NCBI GenBank assembly: GCA_964016885.1
Contig: OZ024747.1
Coordinates: 17,484,001 to 17,548,000, forward strand
DNA from: Eledone cirrhosa
Lineage: Eukaryota
DNA length: 64,000 nucleotides
Direction of reading: 5' to 3'
Part shown: positions 13,774 through 61,400 of the stretch, in pieces
How the letters are laid out: each line of letters opens with the position of its first letter
Position numbering within the stretch: the first letter of the stretch is position 1
Made by a program: the position numbers and the translations under genes
The notes under the pieces: generated by a model
Seen by the model: only the letters and a program-made list of their open reading frames with translations
Told to the model about the DNA's origin: nothing
The model's database searches: none

Positions 13774-14143
13774 CATGGTGGCTGCCAACTCGTTTTCGAG
13801 TACGGCCACTACTTTATATCCATGTAGGAGAACTCCTACCAATGCGCTGAATGAGTGACATTTTAGTCCAGCCAGCAACTTGAAAACTCTGGTACAAACA
13901 CTACACTTGTGACAATTATTGACACATAGTGCTGGGCCCATGGTACCATGTGACGACAAGTGCAGAGAGATCTCCAGATATAAAGCAATGCCTGTGCTGT
14001 GAAGCTTTTATAGTGAGCAAAGGCACTGCACAAAGCCAGTCCCACTCTCTTAACCAAGATGATATTTACCAAAAAGAAGAACAAGTCAACATCATTGGAT
14101 ACCATCAGGGTTGCAGGTGTTATATCAGAGTTTTCCTTCTCCT
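13774..14143 (-). mobile_element. Bipartite RTE-derived non-autonomous element, family B (5'-truncated)
   Basis: Near-identical to the 3' part of 34852-35462; embedded in (TACA)n. Confidence 0.85.
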
Positions 14144-14180
14144 ACATACATACATACATACATACATACATACATACATA

Positions 14181-14382
14181 CATGATGGCTGCCCCCTCGC
14201 TATCGAGTATGGCCATTGCACGAGAAAAAAAAAATAATAATAATATATATATATATATACACATACACACACACACACATACACACACACACATACATTA
14301 ATAACAATAATAATAACAACAACAACAACAACAATATACATATATATATACACACACACGCACACACATAAGCATATCTACA

Positions 14383-14423
<41 letters not shown>

Positions 14424-15105
14424 TAGCAACTAACAGCGCTGCGATCGCATGTGGCTTTCTAGCCCAGCCAATGATCTAAAATGTCTTGCACAGAGTCGGC
14501 AACCAAAACATTCACTGGGAATAGTCGGCTGTGGTTGGAGTTCGTGTACTTTTGCATGTCGCTTGAAATCTCCTGCTGATTTACATTCTCTACCACATGT
14601 TTGGCAAGCATGATGAGTAGCATCTCCAACAGCAGCCTGGTAGTCAACCACTGGTCTTACTTTATGACTGCGAAGATGACTTTCGAGTCCAGCTTTGCTT
14701 AGGCAGAGTCTCGCACATACGCTGCATGTCAGCACCATAGGAGGACCCTCGCCGTCTGGAAGTGCAACAGCAATGCCCTTCCTCACATCCCGCTTTACTT
14801 TCTCGTATGCGATTCGAGATGCCTCAAAAGCAACTTTTCCCTCATATACAATCTTTCTCCATTTATTACGACAGCAGCAATATTCTCCCATGTATCAGCA
14901 GAGATGTTAGCGTCTTTCAGAGAGGCTTTCAAGGAATCCTTATACCTCTTTTTTGGTTTATGTGGCGGTCGTTTTCCTTTAACCAACTCTCCATAGAAGA
15001 GTTGTTTTGGTATTCTAGAATCCTTCATCCTGGCAAGGTGACCACTCCAACGGAGTCGTTGCATAAGCACAAGAGCTTCTATACTGTCACCGATAGAGCT
15101 TTCCA
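14181..15105 (-). mobile_element. RTE (BovB-like) LINE 3' end with three C2H2 zinc fingers and microsatellite-interrupted 3' UTR
   Basis: [29 protein letters not shown]....[14 protein letters not shown]-terminus, frameshift, then three CxxC-x12-H fingers; tail TCGTGCAATGGCCATACTCG..CGAG..GGCAGCCATC(ATGT)n at 14181-14225. Confidence 0.85.
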
Positions 15106-15193
15106 CATACATACATACATATATACATACATATACATATATATATATATATACATACATACATACATACATATACATACAATCATATATACA

Positions 15194-15228
<35 letters not shown>

Positions 15229-15233
<5 letters not shown>

Positions 15234-15333
15234 TGGCTGCCAACTCGTTTTCGAGTTCGGCCACTACTTTATATCCATGTAGGAGAACTCCTACTGATGC
15301 GCTGAACGAGTGTGACTTAGTCCAGCCAGCGAC
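15229..15333 (-). mobile_element. Family B element, 3' stub
   Basis: TGGTGGCTGCCAACTCGTTTTCGAG... matches the other copies. Confidence 0.85.
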
Positions 15334-15365
15334 TATATATATACATATATATATACATACATACA

Positions 15366-22998: not shown

Positions 22999-23816
22999 AA
23001 ATTACGTATTTCTAAAGAAACACGGTAATATATATATATATATATATATTAGTAATTACTCTCAGATACACATATTTAACTTTATTTAGTTTATTGCACG
23101 ACAATGTCGAATTTTTAAATAATTTCAACCACATGCGCATATTACAAAACCAAAACCAAAATTTACGCTCTTGTTTTTTGTATTATTTCTATCAAGCCCA
23201 TATTACTTTCGATTTGCAGAGTGTAAAAAGTATCAGCTAGAATTGCAATTTTATGTATGTTCTATATATATCGTAGCTCATAGGAAGTGTAATATATAAC
23301 ATAGGATACCATCGATTTACATGCACGAATGCCCAATACATTGAAGCTACTTACAGACTTTAATTGGACGGCAATACTGCATTCTATCATTCTATACGAG
23401 ACTTCATTTCCTGTCTCCTTATTAATTTGAGATGTAAATATTCCTACTACCCCTCCATATAATACTTCTCCTTTTCACACTTATCTCTCATTAATCACCC
23501 CCCCCCCCCCATCTCTCTCTCCGCCTCTGACTCTCTGTCTCTATCTTTCTTTCTACTATGTATCTTTCGAGGACAATCCTAAAATCGTTTCCCAAGTGCT
23601 GTATATATCATGTTTCCACTGTTAAACCGAAACGACCACGATGTGTATCATACATTCTAACATTGAAGAATACACTTTGACTATGTTATGTATATTTATA
23701 TATATATCGAGTCACAAATACACAGACACACACACATCCTACGCACAAATATATTCTTATATATATAGTGCTCCCATACATACGTATATGCATATTTATG
23801 TATCTATGTATCTATG

Positions 23817-24080
23817 AATGCTGTCGGAGATGCTGCTCATTATACTTGCCAAGTATGTGGAAGAGAGTGTAGATCAGCAGGAGGGCTCAAACGACATGCA
23901 AAAGTACATGAAGTCCAGCCACAGCCGGCTATTGCCAGTGGTTGCCAACTCTGTGCAAGACATTTTAGAACATTGACTTGGTTAAAAAGCCATTTGATAG
24001 CAACACCTTTAGTTATTAATATATATGTGTGTTCTTTTTTTTTTCGTGCAATGACCATACTCGATAATGAGAGGCAGTCA
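23817..24080 (+). mobile_element. Second RTE zinc-finger 3' end (same family as 14181-15105)
   Basis: AVGDAAHYTCQVCGRECRSAGGLKRHAKVH...CQLCARHFRTL..LKSH, then tail TCGTGCAATGACCATACTCGATAATGAG. Confidence 0.8.
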
Positions 24081-31014: not shown

Positions 31015-31357
31015 CATGGTGGCTGCCAACTCGTTTTCGAGTACGGCCACTACTTTATATCCATGTAGGAGAACTCCTACCGATGCGCTGAACGAGTGTG
31101 ACTTTTAAGTCCAGCCAACGACTTGAAAACTCTGGCACAAACACTACACTTGTGACAATTACTGACACATAGTGCTGGGCCCATGGTACCATGTGATGAC
31201 AAATGCAGAGAGATCTCCAGATATAAAGCAATGCCTGTGCTGTGAAGCTTTTATAGTGAGCAAAGGCACTGCACAAAACCAGTCCCACTCTCTTAACCAA
31301 GATGATATTTACCAAAAAGAAGAACAAGTCAACATCATTGGATACCATCAGAGTTGC
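31015..31357 (-). mobile_element. Family B element (5'-truncated)
   Basis: Near-identical to the other copies. Confidence 0.85.
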
Positions 31358-31413
31358 ATGCATACATACATATCTACATACATACATATATACATACATA
31401 TCTACATACATAC

Positions 31414-33060
31414 AACCCAATCTAGCAACATTGTCATCAATGGTCTAACTGTTTCACCAATATCTGATGAGGACTGCTACAAATACCTGGGGATAGATGA
31501 GAACATATCCTATAATGGTATCTGTAATAAAGAACGCGTAACCAGGGAATACTACACCCGATTAAGAAAGATCTGGTCATCGGAACTCTCTGCGCAAAAC
31601 AAAACGGTGGCTCACAATGTGTTTGCTGTGACTGTCCTAACACCAACGTTTGGAATACTCAATTGGACGATAGACGAAATCCGAGCAGTTGATGTTGGAA
31701 CTCGAAAAATACTGAACAACACCGGAAACTTCCACATCAACAGTGACATAGACCGCCTTTACTTGCAACGTAAGCAGGGAGGCAGAGGCCTAACATCAGC
31801 CCAGACAACATTTGAATGTCGCATCATATCTCTCTGACAACATCTACAAACCTCGAAGCGTAGGAGTTCATTTCTCGAGCAAGTCTATCTGCATGAAACA
31901 GCTAAGATCATGAGAATTGGGAAGGAACTCCTTGAGAGATATTCCCTGTGTGATAATCAAAAACTCACACCCAGGGATGTCGCTCAGCAGTATCGCAGTG
32001 AATCGATGGATGAAAAACTGCATGCCTATCAGCAAAAAATCACGCATGAATATGTTGCCAGGAAGCTCCAGAGTGAGAGTAATATAGATAAGGAAAGTAG
32101 TCTACCTTGGACCAACAACCGCTATATTGGCTCCCACTTTGAAGGATACGCTTTTGCAATCCAAGAACAGGAGATTAGCACGAAATACCTGATTCACAAA
32201 AGAGATAGGGATGCAGGCAAAACACCTAGATGTGATAACAAGTGCAGACTCTGCAGAACTAACATCGAGGATGTCACCAATGTCATCAGCAGCTGCCCAA
32301 AGATGTCATCGCGGTACTATCTACCTATGAGGCATGATGTAGTGGCCAAAACACTGTACAATGCAGTTCGTAAAAGAGATAGCCCCGATAATAAACACAT
32401 TAAAAGCTACAACAATGTGGAAGACATCCATGTACATAATATGAAAGAGTACTGGTGGAATGTTCCAGTAAAAACCCCAATAAAATGCAGGCATAACAGA
32501 CCAGATATTATGATATGGGACAGGGAGAAGAAAACATGCACAGTAGTGGAAATTAGCTGCCCAGCAGATGCCAATATAATATCAAAGATTAGTGAAAAGG
32601 AGAATATTTATGCAGAACTGATGAGAAATCTGCAGATACTCCACCCTGATTACACCTTCAGATTTATGCCGGTGATTATTGGGGCACTGGGATATGTTAG
32701 TAACTGCCTCAATACAAATCTTGAGAAGCTAGTCTTCACGGGAACAGAAAGAACACAACTAGTTAGGAAACTACAAGTACAATCCATTAATGGAACAGTA
32801 AAAATATGTAAAACATTCCAAACATTTTGCATCTAATAACTGCATATACACATGTACAGATACAAAGCATATACACATGCACACATACAACTCAAAATAT
32901 ACACATCCACACATACAATAACATCCATATCTATACATGCATGCATACATACATATCTACCTAGTTGATGTTGTGTAAATTCCAATGAGAGAGTCTTGTG
33001 TCTATGTTAGAAACCGACTCTCTCTCTATTGGTAAAACTTGAAATTATAAAACCAGAAGA
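31414..33060 (+). mobile_element. R4/Dong-clade non-LTR retrotransposon, 5'-truncated (RT end, Zn knuckle, RLE)
   Basis: YKYLG, DRLYL.RK.GGRGL, IQEQ, CRLC..C, RHD, RPDI, EISCP, KENIY; one in-frame TGA at 31835-31837 splits two same-frame ORFs; (ACAT)n tail. Confidence 0.92.
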
Positions 33061-34451
33061 ACATACATACATACATACATACATACATAAATATATACAT
33101 CATACATACATACATCCATTCAACCATCCATCCATACATACATACATGCATACATATATACATATATAGATACATACATACACATGCATACATACACACA
33201 CATATACATGTATAAAAATATGTGTGCTTATGTGTCACTGCGTGTATATGCATATGTAAGTATATGTATTTATATATATATGTGTTTGTGATTCTTTGTG
33301 TGTCGGGTGGAGAGAGAGGGTGGAGAGGGGGAGAGAGAAAGAGAGAGAGAGAGAAATATAGACACGTTGCCGTTAGTTACGGAAATTTCAGACAATATCT
33401 GAATTTGTTACATTGATATTTTACTATACAAATGAAATAAAGGTAGTAGAACCAGAGTTTTGTGACTCTCAGAATAGTAAAGTACTGATATAGAATAATT
33501 AATAACTTATTTAGTGGCTTACTAGCGTAAGAACAGCTTTCATTTAAATCAAAAGTACTTTGTATAAAATATGTTGATTTAGATCAATTTGATCAAGTGA
33601 TAAGCGTTAATGTATATTAATTAGAGCAATTAAGAACATAATTAATAACTTTTGTCTTTAAAAGAGTGTGGTTTTCTTTTAAATTCAAAATAGTTTAAGT
33701 AAACAAAATGGTTTTAAAACGATTTCATGAATTGGTCAGCGCCTATGTAAATTATTCTTCTACATACAGATCAAAATATAATTTATCTAATCAATTTTTT
33801 TATACTGTCATAAGTGTTTTTTTTTATGTGTATTCATTTTCATGTTCAGTATTAAGTCCTCTTTCTCATATACGAAATCAGCTTTCTTTTTATATTGAGC
33901 AAATTTTGCTTGCTGGTGAAAATGTTTTATCGTGCAATAATGAAGCTCTGGGTGAAGTTGGACCCTGTATATTTTATATTTTCATTCTATTCATGTAGAC
34001 AACAGAGGGGTCACTTTAAGTCATGTTATTGTTATCAAATAATTTATTATTGTATTCCTAACTTCAAGATAAATGTACACCACGGAGTCAGTTTCTTCCT
34101 CTATTTGTAAGTAATAACATTTTGTACCTATCTCAATGTCGCATTTCTTTAATCTCCTATGTCGCTGATGCTGTCGTGCTAAGCCATATTGTTCGTAATA
34201 TATTTTTGTATACTAAGTTCCCGTTTAAGATTGATAACATTACACGCTTGATACAAAGTTGCTAATGGAAGTGATCAGAAGAAAAACAAGTTATTTAGCA
34301 TATCCGGTAACTGAATTAAAGTTGGCGATAGCAATCATCGTAAATTGAATATATAATATTTCACACCATATGTCATAGCTAACGGCGAATGTCTCTCTGT
34401 GTTTGTATATTTGTTTGTATATATGTATGTATGTATAATTCTAGGAAAATG

Positions 34452-34812
34452 AAAACTGATATAACACCTGCAACCCTGATGGTATCCAATGATGTTGACT
34501 TGTTCTTCTTTTTGGTAAATATCATCTTGGTTAAGAGAGTGGGACTGGCTTTGTGCAGTGCCTTTGCTCACTATAAAAGCTTCACAGCACAGGCATTACT
34601 TTATATCTGGAGATCTCTCTGCACTTGTCATCACATGGTACCATGGGCCCAGCACTATGTGTCAATAATTGTCGCAAGTGTAGTGTTTGTACCAGAGTTT
34701 TCAAGTCGCTGGCTGAACTAAAAAGTCACACTCGTTCAGCGCATCGGTAGGGGTTCTCCTACATCGATATAAGGTAGTGGCCGTACTCGAAAACGAGTTG
34801 GCAGCCACCATG
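34452..34812 (+). mobile_element. Family B element (5'-truncated)
   Basis: Ends GAGTTGGCAGCCACC(ATGT)n. Confidence 0.85.
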
Positions 34813-34851
34813 TATGTATGTATGTATGTATGTATGTATGTATGTATGTAT

Positions 34852-35462
34852 GTCAGGTCACCAGTTGGTGCTACTGGTAACATGTATCCCAGTACAACCT
34901 GTCTCATGGTCGGGTCGTTGGCGACTAAACTGGCAACCCCACCAAGGTTTCTTGGTGAGGAGGGTGGCTTTGGACATCCTGCAGGACTAAAAACAAAACC
35001 TGTCAAAGGGCAAAGGAGCTCTTAAGAGTCAATGGCCATCCAAAATCACTGGGAGAGATGACCCCTTAGCCTTTGTCAAGGCAGAATTCTAGGAGAAGGA
35101 AAACTCTGATATAACACCTGCAACTCTGATGGTATCCAATGATGTTGACTTGTTCTTCTTTTTGGTAAATATCATCTTGGTTAAGAGAGTGGGACTGGCT
35201 TCGTGCAGTGCCTTTGCTCACTATAAAAGCTTCACGGCACAGGCATTGCTTTATATCTGGAGATCTCTCTTCACGTTTCATCACAGGGTACCAATGGGCC
35301 TAGCACTATGTGTCAATAATTGTCACAGGTGTAGTGTTTGTACCAGAGTTTTCAAGTCGCTGGCTGGACTAAAAAGTCACATTCGTTCAGCGCATTGGTA
35401 GGGGTTCTCCTACATGGATATAAAGTAGTGGCCGTACTCGAAAACGAGTTGGCAGCCACCAT
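34852..35462 (+). mobile_element. Family B element, apparently full length (~610 bp)
   Basis: Same 5' start GTCAGGTCACCAG as the 40206-40807 copy; contains C2H2 remnant [22 protein letters not shown]; (ATGT)n on both sides. Confidence 0.88.
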
Positions 35463-39292: not shown

Positions 39293-39812
39293 GTCAGTAG
39301 TTGCAGGTGGGGAAAGGACCGTCCTGATGAAGACCAGTCAAGTCTGAAATGCGTAGACGGTTGTCACCCTTGCTTCTGCAACCCAGTACAACCTGCCGCA
39401 TGGTCCCACCAAGTTTACTTGGTGAGGAGGGGTATTTTGTACACCCTGCAGGACAAAAAACCTGACAAAGGGCGGAAGAACTCATAAGAGTCAACGGCCA
39501 TCCAAAAGTGTGTAAGTAAACCACTGGGAGTGAAGGATCCCCAGCCTTTGTCCGGGCATTCTTCTAGGAGAAGGCAACTCAGGAAACGGGATAACTCCGA
39601 TATAAAACCTGCGGTTCAGTAGTTACCGATGATGTTGATCTTTTCTTCTTTTCGTGTTATAGAAACTGTCGCTCAGAGAGTGGGATTGGCTCAGTGCACA
39701 GTCTTTCCTCACTTTAAAAAATATCTTCACGCACAGGCATTGCACGATAGAATTATTTAATAATGGTATATCGTGCAATGGTCATACTCGATAACGAGGG
39801 GGCAGCCATCAT
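39293..39812 (+). mobile_element. Bipartite RTE-derived element, family A (hammerhead-bearing)
   Basis: From 39383 colinear with the family B 5' module (CCCAGTACAACCTG, CTTGGTGAGGAGGG, GAGTCAAYGGCCATCC, GATGTTGA, GAGAGTGGGA, GCACAGGCATTGC); 3' tail matches the RTE ZnF LINE tail. Confidence 0.8.
39318..39361 (+). ncRNA. Type I hammerhead ribozyme
   Basis: Stem I ACCGTC/GACGGT, CTGATGA, stem II AGAC-cagtcaa-GTCT, GAA, quasi-palindromic stem III ATGCGT, H17=A. Confidence 0.85.
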
Positions 39813-40205: not shown

Positions 40206-40807
40206 TATGGTGGCTGCCAACTCGTTTTCGAGTACGGCCACTACTTTATATCCATGTAGGAGAACACCTACCGATGCGCTGAACGAGTGTGACTTTTTAG
40301 TCCAGCCAGCGACTTGAAAACTCTGGTACAAACACTACACTTGTGACAATTATTGACACATAGTGCTGGGCCCATGGTACCATGTGACGACAAGTGCAGA
40401 GAGAACTCCAGACATAAAGCAATGCCTGTGCCGTGAAGCTTTTATAGTGAGCAAAGGCACTGCACAAAGCCAGTCCTACTCTCTTAACCAAGATGATATT
40501 TACCAAAAAGAAGAACAAGTCAACATCATTGGATACCATCAGGGTTGCAGGTGTTATATCAGAGTTTTCCTTCTCGTAGAATTCTGCCTTGACAAAGGCT
40601 AAGGGGTCATCTCTCCCGGTGAATTTTGGATGGCCATTGACTCTTTGCCCTTTGCCAGGTTTTGTTTTTAGTCCTGCAGGATGTCCAAAGTCACCCTCCT
40701 CACCAAGAAACCTTGGTGGGGTTGCCAGTTTAGTCGCCAACGACCCGACCATGAGACAGGTTGTACTGGGATACATGTTACCAGTAGCACCAACTGGTGA
40801 CCTGACA
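40206..40807 (-). mobile_element. Family B element, apparently full length
   Basis: Reverse-complement match to 34852-35462. Confidence 0.88.
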
Positions 40808-41640
40808 TATATATATACATATATATATACATATATACATACATATATATATACATATATACATACATATATACATATATATATACATATATATATACAT
40901 ATATACATACATATATACATATATACATACATATATACATATATATATACATATATACATACATATATATATACATATATACATACATATATATATACAT
41001 ATATATATACATATATACATACATATATACATACATATATATATACATATATATATACATATATATATACATATATATATACATATATATATACATATAT
41101 ATATACATATATACATACATATATATATACATATATATATACATATATATATACATATATACATACATATATATATACATATATACATACATATATATAT
41201 ACATATATATATACATATATACATACATACATATATACTTATATACATATATATATACATATATATATACTTATATACATATACATATACTTATATACAT
41301 ATACATATATATATACTTATATACATATATATATACATATATATATACTTATATACATATACATATACATATATATATACATATACTTATATACATATAT
41401 ATATACATATATATATACTTATATACATACATATATATATACTTATATACATACATATATATATACTTATATACATACATACATATATATATACTTATAT
41501 ACATACATACATATATACATATACATACATATGTATATATATATATACATATAATATATATACATATATATAATATATATACATATAATATATATACATA
41601 TATATAATATATATACATATAATATATATATATATAGAGA
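40808..41640. repeat. (TACA/TA)n compound microsatellite
   Basis: Directly visible. Confidence 0.95.
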
Positions 41641-56288: not shown

Positions 56289-57493
56289 GAATAGATAACC
56301 GCACTAGAGATCACGACCCCGGCGATGGTGACCACTGTAGATTACTCGAACTATTCCCCTATTACAAAACCAACAAAGGCGACGGCCTACTACCAACGCC
56401 TTCCAACCAACATCTTCCTGTACATAAACATGGAAGAGGTAGGAAGAGTGCACCCGAGCATAAAGTGAAAGGGGCACTGAACGGGCGACTGCGCACTAAC
56501 ACACATCAGAGCGGTCACCTAGATGGAACCACCCGTAGCAAACGTACAAGGACAGGTAATCGCCACCGTAACGTCCTATGGTTCCCCCCCCCCCCCTACT
56601 CTCGGAGTGTGGCCTCCAACATACCCCGGATGTTCTTCGAAGCCTTAGAGAAGAACTTCCCGCCCAACCATAGGTATAGAAAAATTCTTAATAGGAACAA
56701 TATAAAAATATCCTTCTCTACTACTCCTAACCTAGCAGACATCTTAGGAACAACGAACCACAGTAAGATCACCAAGGCACAACACCTCGACTCAGACGCA
56801 CCTACACCTGACAATAACTATATCGGCCTTAACAACTCCCTAGCAGCATCCAATAGTGTTGGCAACGGCATCCGCAGACGCAACCAGCATAACCGCGAAA
56901 TGACTGGGAAACATGGAGGACATGACGTGCGGAATAACAATCGCACCACCCCGCGTGCTGTTGGTTGTAATGGTGGTAACGACAGCTGCGGTAGCGTGGG
57001 TAACAACGTAGGCAGCAACAATGATAGCCTTACCGTAGGAAATAGACGGAATCGCGACAGAAATTGCAACTGCCGCGACAGAGAACGCTGCCCCCTTAGA
57101 GGATACTGCTTGACTGATAGGGTTATATATAGATGCACTATAACTAGCCACAATAGCGTTAAACACTATATAGTGGCTACCTCCGGTCCGTTCAAAATTA
57201 GGTTTCGAACACATCTCCACTCTTTCACAAATAAAAAACTAAGACACTCCACTTCGCTCGCGGACTACATCACATCACTAAAGGACTTAAACATCAGCTT
57301 TTCCACGCACTGGGATATTGTCGGAAGGGCTGCACCGTACAACTTCAAGAGGAAATGCGATCTTTGCCTCATGGAGCTCTACCACATCATAACTGCACCC
57401 CACGATCTCATCAACAGCAGAGCTGAAACAGCGATAAGTTGTACACATCGCTTAAAAATATCCTCCTTCAGATGGGTTAAACATGAGGAGTGA
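56285..57493 (+). mobile_element. Penelope-like element, 5'-truncated: post-RT region, linker and GIY-YIG endonuclease (Hydra-group-like)
   Basis: VLWFPPPPYS..V..NI...F...LEKNFP..H...KILNRN.IKISFS, CNC-x5-CPL.GYC, VIY...YIV.T...FK.R...H..SF, CDLC..E, INSRAE....CTH; (TA)n flanks. Confidence 0.88.
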
Positions 57494-60370: not shown

Positions 60371-61400
60371 AAAAGGTTGGCAACCATCTTGCTCAGGTTT
60401 ATGAGCATGAAAAAAAATATAATTAGAATAGCGACTGATCTGGAGGAGAGATATGGAATAAAGCCTGATATAAATCTCTCACCCAGAGAAATCGGAAGAT
60501 CCTACTCAATGTTCAAACAAGATGAAAAAATTGAGCAATTTACAGAAAAAGGTGTGCATGGATACTTGAGACGTAAAACACAGACCATAGAGGGGATAAA
60601 CCACTCAAAAAGCCTGGCATGGAGTTCCGACAAGTTTATGACATCACACCTTGAGGGATATCTCTATGCAATACAGGAACAAGAACTCCCTACCAAATAT
60701 CTGCTGCAGAAAAGGGGAGGGCCATCAGCTGACAATAAATGTAGGCTATGTAAAACAAAGATCGAGGATGTAAGCCACATTGTTGCCAGCTGCGAAAGAA
60801 TGTCATCTCGCTACTACCTCCCCATGAGACACAATGGGATAGCTAGAACCATCTGGAACGCACTTCGGAAAACAAAATTAACAACAAACGAGGAAGAATA
60901 TATTGAGAAAGATGGCACTAAGGAATACTAGTGGAACCTGAAAATAAAACCTGCCACCAAATTAAAGCACAACCGGCCTGATATTGTTGTTTGGGACCAC
61001 ACATTGAAAACGTGTTCTGTTGTGGAGATCAGCTGCCCACTTGATGTAAACGTTGTCAGAAAAATACAGGAGAAGGAGGACATCTACGGACCATTGACGA
61101 GGAGTTTACAAATCCAGTATTCAAGATACACCTTTAGCTTCATACCCATCATTATTGGAGCTACGGGTTATATACCAACCTGCTTGGACCAAAGTATGAC
61201 TGAACTAGGATTTGCCGACAAAGAGCGCAGCTCCCTAATTCATAGTCTACAAATGGCTGCGATAGCTGGCACCTTCAAAATTTGCAAAACATTCTTGCGA
61301 TTCAAGGAATGACAATTTCTTTTCTTTTACAACTTTGCCACCAGGAAGGTGGCCGGTCAAAAAAAATATACTCGAAATTAAGAGAAAGAGATAACATACA
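60371..61400 (+). mobile_element. Second R4/Dong-clade family, 5'-truncated (Zn knuckle plus RLE)
   Basis: EGYLYAIQEQ, CRLC....EDVSHIVASC, RHN, RPDI, EISCP, KEDIY; one in-frame TAG at 60929-60931; preceded by (TACA)n, followed by ACATACA. Confidence 0.9.

Follow-up and report, generated by a model that had tools for sequence, protein, structure and literature searches.

Background

Bipartite non-autonomous RTE LINEs and SINEs derived from RTE, among them Bov-A, WALLSI3/RTESINE2 and MAR4_MD, have been described previously (Kojima 2018, PMC5786205), and they combine a conserved mid-UTR domain with an RTE 3' end and a microsatellite tail, the ORF having been deleted. The papers cited here by PMC or bioRxiv number were available in part, and statements about them refer to those parts. 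According to PMC5786205, such internally deleted derivatives arise 'for unknown reasons', the domain was proposed to be a regulator of transcription, and it was acquired independently several times, both by non-coding derivatives and by tRNA-headed SINEs, which are untranslated and carry no LINE 5' end. In stringent LINEs, including the RTE/Au SINE group, a short covarying hairpin precedes the tail and is regarded as a purely local 3' signal (PMC6007223, PMC5135761).

Pairing between distant ends has been linked to reverse transcription in Ty1 (Cristofari et al. 2002, cited through PMC6844567), which, unlike the target-primed RTE, is an LTR element that uses tRNA priming and strand transfer. 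R2 is closer to RTE in being a single-ORF non-LTR element, and its protein uses structured RNA of both ends, but this is described as sequential binding of the two RNAs and not as base pairing between them, and R2 belongs to another endonuclease class (bioRxiv 2023.04.07.536001); R2 likewise gives rise to bipartite derivatives (PMC5786205). Flavivirus genome cyclisation also joins complementary 5' and 3' elements that lie beside structured domains, although it serves the replication of an RNA virus with unrelated sequences and is an analogy only.

The two families analyzed here, A and B, lie in a 64-kb stretch of DNA (the window, meaning this stretch at its full length) and share with Bov-A and its like the mid-UTR domain, the deleted ORF, the RTE 3' end and the microsatellite tail, and with stringent LINEs the hairpin before the tail. 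The present reading differs from the earlier ones in that a helix formed with the 5' UTR adjoins this hairpin; the available account of bipartite RTEs in PMC5786205 includes neither 5'-3' pairing nor a pseudoknot. A search of the accessible literature, outside of which lie most subscription papers and all patents, including one on modified RTE UTRs, turned up no account of the 5' and 3' UTRs of RTE pairing with each other. The accessible parts of PMC13708176, PMC6007223, PMC3747384, PMC7245038, PMC4324840, PMC5135761, PMC2887409, PMC9115989, PMC13282606, PMC6844567 and bioRxiv 2022.11.04.512097 contain none. We consider it rather unlikely, but well within reach, that a prior description exists somewhere.

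Two families of bipartite RTE derivatives in the window

There is nothing unusual about A and B as bipartite derivatives of RTE: both are non-coding, internally deleted RTE LINEs of an already known class. They occur as several dispersed copies in which an RTE 5' UTR is fused to the 3' end of an RTE and a microsatellite tail follows, the ORF being lost by internal deletion. The bipartite A element analyzed here spans 39381-39812 (+ strand), its 5' boundary being approximate. Family B includes a full-length copy lying in a TA/TATG microsatellite (34854-35461, +), a second full-length copy (40208-40804, -), three 5'-truncated copies (34437-34810, +; 13776-14144, -; 31017-31358, -), and a short 3' fragment (15231-15334, -) that contains only the 3' arm of the helix described below. 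Since the copies sit within TA/TATG repeats, any target-site duplication is masked.

The 3' end of A shows 95% and 87% identity to two coding RTE 3' fragments of the window. One of these (14182-15107, -) contains a decayed ORF end with three C2H2 fingers and a microsatellite, and the other occupies 23769-24074 (+). In these coding copies an expanded microsatellite separates the ORF end from the 3' arm (14224-14430, -; about 23997-24043, +), while the spacing from the arm to the terminal hairpin is unchanged; a similar expansion is known for RTE-2_OV (PMC9115989). An unseeded blastn search with B matched two coding relatives, L022 (E value 2e-5) and L005 (E value 0.004).

Searching for a Pol III head of tRNA, 5S or 7SL type, we found no tRNA in the window, and neither A nor B matched a head of these types in Rfam, where nothing reached gathering level for the A and B elements or for 12 coding loci. 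For a 5' HDV-like ribozyme there was likewise no Rfam match; with a loose descriptor the fits in B were all implausible, and A yielded no fit. When contigs and reads of a close organism were aligned to A, it proved to be a high-copy family there, and 1,693 reads contained a T-rich stretch ahead of the A 3' arm, as do the coding copies. Among the contigs and reads matching A, no record ran on past the 5' arm into coding sequence.

The helix in families A and B

The earlier note had proposed that a stretch behind the 5' module pairs with one ahead of the 3' tail in both families, placing the arms of B at 35244-35257 and 35417-35430 and those of A at 39738-39749 and 39769-39780 (all +), and all four arms were found there. 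In B all 14 positions are paired, including two G-U wobbles, and the helix extends to 16 bp when the arms are lengthened to 35259 and from 35415. In A all 12 pairs are Watson-Crick. The alignment of A with B runs right up to the 5' arms, which bears out their homologous position, and a comparison of A with B over 12 columns shows three two-sided and two one-sided changes, all of which leave the pairs intact, so that the sequence differs and the pairing is kept as had been claimed. The B helix does loop out the remnant of the parental ORF end, a C2H2 zinc finger (Pfam zf-C2H2, E value 6e-6) with its stop codon at 35324-35401 (+), in a loop of 159 nt; the loop of A measures 19 nt. Downstream of the 3' arms lie the terminal hairpins, at 35436-35449 (+) in B, where GGCAGCCA and the microsatellite tail follow, and at 39787-39798 (+) in A.

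The note had also stated that coding copies carry TCGTGCAATG in their 3' UTR, and both coding fragments do (14214-14223, -; 24044-24053, +). These A-type ends pair with the A arm at -20.2 and -20.6 kcal/mol and with the B arm at only -12.0 and -11.1 kcal/mol. The five B copies that have both arms all pair across the 14 columns. None of 150 dinucleotide shuffles of A produced a 12-bp Watson-Crick helix, whereas 16 bp with wobbles were reached in 6 of 150 shuffles of B, and B alone is therefore modest evidence. The arms are not better kept than the remainder among the B copies, with 3 changed cells of 140 versus 26 of 788 and 7 of 625.

In predicted ensembles the helix reached a probability of 0.93 or more in each 5'-truncated copy of B, three in all, and of 0.78-1.0 in A, but was near zero in both full-length B copies, including that at 34854-35461. 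In the latter two the 5' arm instead pairs with an upstream stretch, which is better by 9.6 and 5.4 kcal/mol. This competing stretch resembles an A-type 3' arm (about 35196-35211 and 35238-35249, +), and it may represent a switch between folds or a folding artefact. We did not take the local fold of full-length B as functional because it disrupts the covarying hairpin described below.

Coding RTE relatives and their 5' UTR domain

Starting from a C-terminal fragment we obtained one protein and from it 1,499 proteins, 47 of which were aligned; the alignment yielded 80 loci, the best 80 of at least 430 confirmed in metagenome contigs. Protein P0002 has one ORF with Exo_endo_phos, RVT_1 and C2H2 fingers, and the loci match most of its length. 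The RT tree has no named references, and the loci were assigned to the RTE clade from this order of domains and from the resemblance, judged by eye, of their UTRs to those of named RTEs in the available supplement of PMC5786205. The tested set consisted of 15 near full-length coding RTEs with a recognisable 5' domain and 3' end, none of them parents of A or B. Eleven form lineage 1 (L001-L005, L010, L014-L016, L019, L021), and four with a different 5' domain, recognised by eye ahead of testing, form lineage 2 (L006, L022, L023, L026). RT identity among the 15 ranged from 41 to 88%, with a median of 49%. Left out were L020 and L017 (same family as L019), those without a 3' end (L013, L018, L048, L061, L065, L073), those with a 5' UTR cut by the contig end (L008, L009, L012, L030), L025 and L040, in which the domain was not recognised, and the remaining fragments. 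No RTE was found in viral and prokaryotic collections.

Ahead of the arm lies a conserved 5' UTR domain. In B it occupies 35188-35241 (+), with a covarying hairpin at 35188-35222 and a likely pseudoknot, predicted between the hairpin loop (about 35202-35206) and 35237-35241. In A it spans 39679-39734 (+), with the hairpin at 39679-39713 and a likely pseudoknot of 39694-39697 with 39731-39734. Across 17 sequences of lineage 1 type, 89% of cells in the hairpin are paired, with two-sided change in 6 of 10 pairs; in the second stem that crosses it, 75% of cells are paired and 3 of 5 pairs show two-sided change. The family specificity of this second stem is borderline when own and cross pairings are compared (11,154 of 200,000 permutations), and 20 of 5,000 shuffles equalled it. 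In the four lineage 2 sequences an 11-bp stem covaries (two-sided change in 6 of 11 pairs), and none of the pairs in the 6-bp stem that crosses it does so; BovB displays two crossing stems by eye. We regard the domain as a likely H-type pseudoknot.

A profile search seeded with A, B and eight loci recovered the domain also in L013, L014, L047, L048, L015 and L016, which were not seeds. A domain-pattern search produced 19 matches, and no RTE protein accompanied any of them; the motifs were absent from the part of the PMC13282606 supplement available. In L047 (84-146, -) and L065 (178-243, -) the domain is inverted relative to the RTE coding part of the same contig, which reflects either 5' inversion or neighbouring copies. 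Ahead of its lineage 2 structure, the 5' UTR of L023 contains what by eye is the RTE-derived portion of the Ceph-SINE domain. In B a reading frame through domain, arm and loop is open in three copies (34383-34721, +; 31055-31444, -; 40297-41238, -), and in the copy at 34854-35461 a one-base insertion moves it into the zinc-finger frame. The open frame is likely incidental.

Coding RTEs match their own 3' ends

In the coding elements a mid-5' UTR arm, directly behind the covarying hairpin, complements a stretch of the same element's 3' end that lies 3.5-3.8 kb away. It lies 423-521 nt upstream of the endonuclease match, and in B about 390 nt inside the element. We compared the 42 nt behind the domain with the 40 nt before the terminal loop; these windows and the registers were fixed after inspection of the sequences, and identical ones were used for the cross-pair control. 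Mean duplex energy was -24.2 kcal/mol for own ends versus -13.6 +/- 4.6 kcal/mol for 154 cross pairs, and none of 200,000 permutations over 10 coding families equalled the own-end total. When A and B were added to the 15 coding elements, an unbroken helix of at least 8 bp was present in 13 of 17 own pairs compared with 32 of 270 cross pairs. In a fixed register of 10 columns, at least 8 pairs formed in 15 of the 17 own combinations, the exceptions being L004 and L019, versus 9 of 270 cross combinations. In a direct-repeat control, own and cross combinations scored nearly alike (means of 5.9 and 5.5 of 10).

The helix also keeps its position. In 14 of 17 cases (12 of 15 coding) the best helix stopped 9-12 nt short of the terminal loop, and its start lay 18-24 nt past the anchor of the domain in lineage 1 and 2-4 nt past it in lineage 2. 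All four lineage 2 elements fit, their own assignment being the best of 24 (8,466 of 200,000 permutations). Within the whole element, no window paired better with the 3' arm than the 5' arm did in 7 of 15 cases, and in 12 of 15 no more than 7 of about 180 windows equalled it; in the weak elements L001, L004 and L019, respectively 24, 17 and 47 of about 180 own windows pair equally well. Two-strand folding supported the helix in 8 of the 15, with a value of about 0.5 in L003 and little support in L001, L002, L004, L005, L019 and L026. L008, added afterwards, has an 8-bp helix better than every cross pairing, and L047, with its inverted 5' piece, has a 7-bp helix in register that is not better than cross pairs.

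A chance origin, in which matches were simply selected by eye, would find some room in the shortness of the helices, in the shuffles of B and in the post hoc windows, but we give it hardly any weight, given how seldom the identical windows succeed on cross pairs and that no permutation reached the own-end total. Also very improbable is a functionless mutational footprint, left when template switching or quasi-palindrome correction copied one arm into the other. It would account for two features of A that are missing from the coding 3' ends, the last 2 bp of the helix and the self-complementarity of the 19-nt loop. However, the arms of the coding elements are kilobases apart, in one fixed register that tolerates wobbles and bulges, and copying would not hold one position over families with 49% RT identity.

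As judged from these sequences, then, the helix is common to coding RTEs and is not special to A and B nor to this host. The earlier note had held that RTE RNA closes a 5' UTR-3' UTR panhandle beside the terminal stem-loop and that autonomous elements without the 5' arm would speak against it. The coding elements do have the arm, which matches their own ends rather than those of other families, and at the sequence level the joining of the two UTRs beside the stem-loop stands. The terminal panhandle does not: because the arm is internal and not at the RNA end, the pairing would form a large loop around the ORF. The note makes no mention of the structured domain ahead of the arm. We regard it as likely that the two arms pair in RTE RNA, and we are quite confident that the pairing is selected.

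Named RTEs and their derivatives

The pairings in the available supplement of PMC5786205 were read by eye and not computed. All nine coding Repbase elements for which both parts are displayed (RTE-3_AMi, RTE-1_PSi, RTE-11_AMi, RTE-4_PPo, BovB, BovB_VA, BovB_Plat, BovB_Ta and RTE1_LA) pair over 6-11 bp in the same place. Two-sided change is seen between RTE-3_AMi (CATGACATC/GATGTCATG) and RTE-1_PSi (CTTGACATC/GATGTCAAG) and again between BovB_VA (CCCTATGG/CCATAGGG) and BovB_Ta (CTCTATGG/CCATAGAG). The same helix is closed by WALLSI, MAR4_MD, Bov-A2, SINE-1_Pmo, MonoRep87 and SINE2_Gav, several of which have loops of a few bases, and the 5' part of derivatives often terminates at the arm (PMC5786205). 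The 3' ends of L002 (4540-4590) and L009 (3270-3300) resemble by eye the tail of platypus MonoRep87A/B, the origin of which is given as unknown in the same supplement.

Alternative roles might explain a selected pairing. It could serve the coding element in translation or in stabilising its RNA, as a closed loop or as a pseudoknot controlling initiation, and be inherited passively by the derivatives. The placement of arm and domain in the 5' UTR, at the distance from the endonuclease match given above, and a loop that spans the whole ORF would suit such a role. Untranslated derivatives (B, WALLSI, MAR4_MD and SINE2_Gav, the named ones as displayed in the available supplement) nevertheless keep family-specific arms, for which translation provides no reason although stability could, and we consider this explanation improbable. 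Only slightly less improbable is a late action that aids second-strand steps or 5' joining, either by tethering the 5' part close to the insertion site or through pairing in cDNA. R2 offers a precedent, in that 3' RNA is used in making its first strand and 5' RNA acts at the second, where it governs cleavage (bioRxiv 2023.04.07.536001), and the strand evidence is weak, G-U and A-C counts of 10 to 6 barely distinguishing RNA from cDNA. On the other side, the two fixed G-U pairs of B would be A-C mismatches in cDNA, and a helix that adjoins the terminal hairpin would presumably be opened early during reverse transcription.

A candidate two-ended recognition signal

The order of parts in these elements is structured 5' UTR domain, arm, ORF where present, counter-arm, about 10 nt, terminal hairpin loop and microsatellite tail. 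The reading that we somewhat favour is that the joined structure is a two-ended recognition signal by which the RTE protein selects RNA for copying. The helix would dock the 5' UTR domain, likely the H-type pseudoknot, against the terminal hairpin, and the docking would create a single composite binding site for the RTE protein, adjoining the start of reverse transcription. The reverse transcriptase would then unwind the helix in its first 40-50 nt. Internally deleted forms would persist as families only with both arms retained, and some of the internal deletions may come from the enzyme jumping over the base of the loop. Loops ranging from a few bases to 159 nt fit selection for keeping both arms. 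A role in recognition is argued because untranslated derivatives, including Pol III SINEs without a LINE start, keep the domain and arms in separate origins.

In plants, Au-like SINEs have only the RTE 3' end in common with their partners (PMC6007223) and RTEs frequently swap their 5' UTRs (bioRxiv 2022.11.04.512097), and these data, as far as available, argue against a universal need for the helix. A broader proposal for animals, to which we give slightly less than an even chance, would make the RTE retrotransposition signal one composite two-ended fold of 5' UTR pseudoknot, family-specific helix and 3' hairpin. Such a fold, undescribed for any LINE, could act as a check of template integrity and would explain the recurrent two-ended derivatives and SINEs.

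Other observations in the window

At 39318-39361 (+) there is a CTGATGA core with a 4-bp stem II, GAAA and a 6-bp stem I, which by motif we take to resemble a minimal type I hammerhead. Position 39353 is A in most contigs and reads, giving a palindromic stem III loop. Rfam returned no score for this stretch and its fold z was -1.6. Because its depth is far lower, we treat the repeat as separate from family A. The 5' end of B (34850-34918, +) allows a three-way junction and scored 20.7 bits (E value 0.42) with RF01415, far below gathering; its likeness to a flavivirus exoribonuclease-resistant element is probably due to chance. A nuclease-blocking head, if present there, would suit an uncapped RNA. 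Judging by motif, the decayed ORFs at 31500-32836 (+) and 60400-61312 (+) are presumably from non-LTR elements with a restriction-like endonuclease, and that at 56300-57493 (+) is presumably a Penelope GIY-YIG end.

Implications

The kind of element represented by A and B, and end pairing in Ty1 and flaviviruses, are already known, and what appears to be new is end pairing in a LINE clade. RTE-1_MD, together with its native 5' and 3' UTRs, already serves gene insertion in trans (PMC13708176, accessible part); a test system is therefore at hand, and its outcome would matter for how templates are designed. If the pairing rule is true, a coding parent of A is expected to carry CATTGCACGA behind the domain, and orphan SINE tails could be matched to their partner LINEs. 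The pairing is a candidate answer to why RTE, unlike most LINE clades, repeatedly yields two-ended derivatives, and if true it would, in a widespread clade with frequent horizontal transfer, change the view that LINE RNA is recognised by its 3' tail only.
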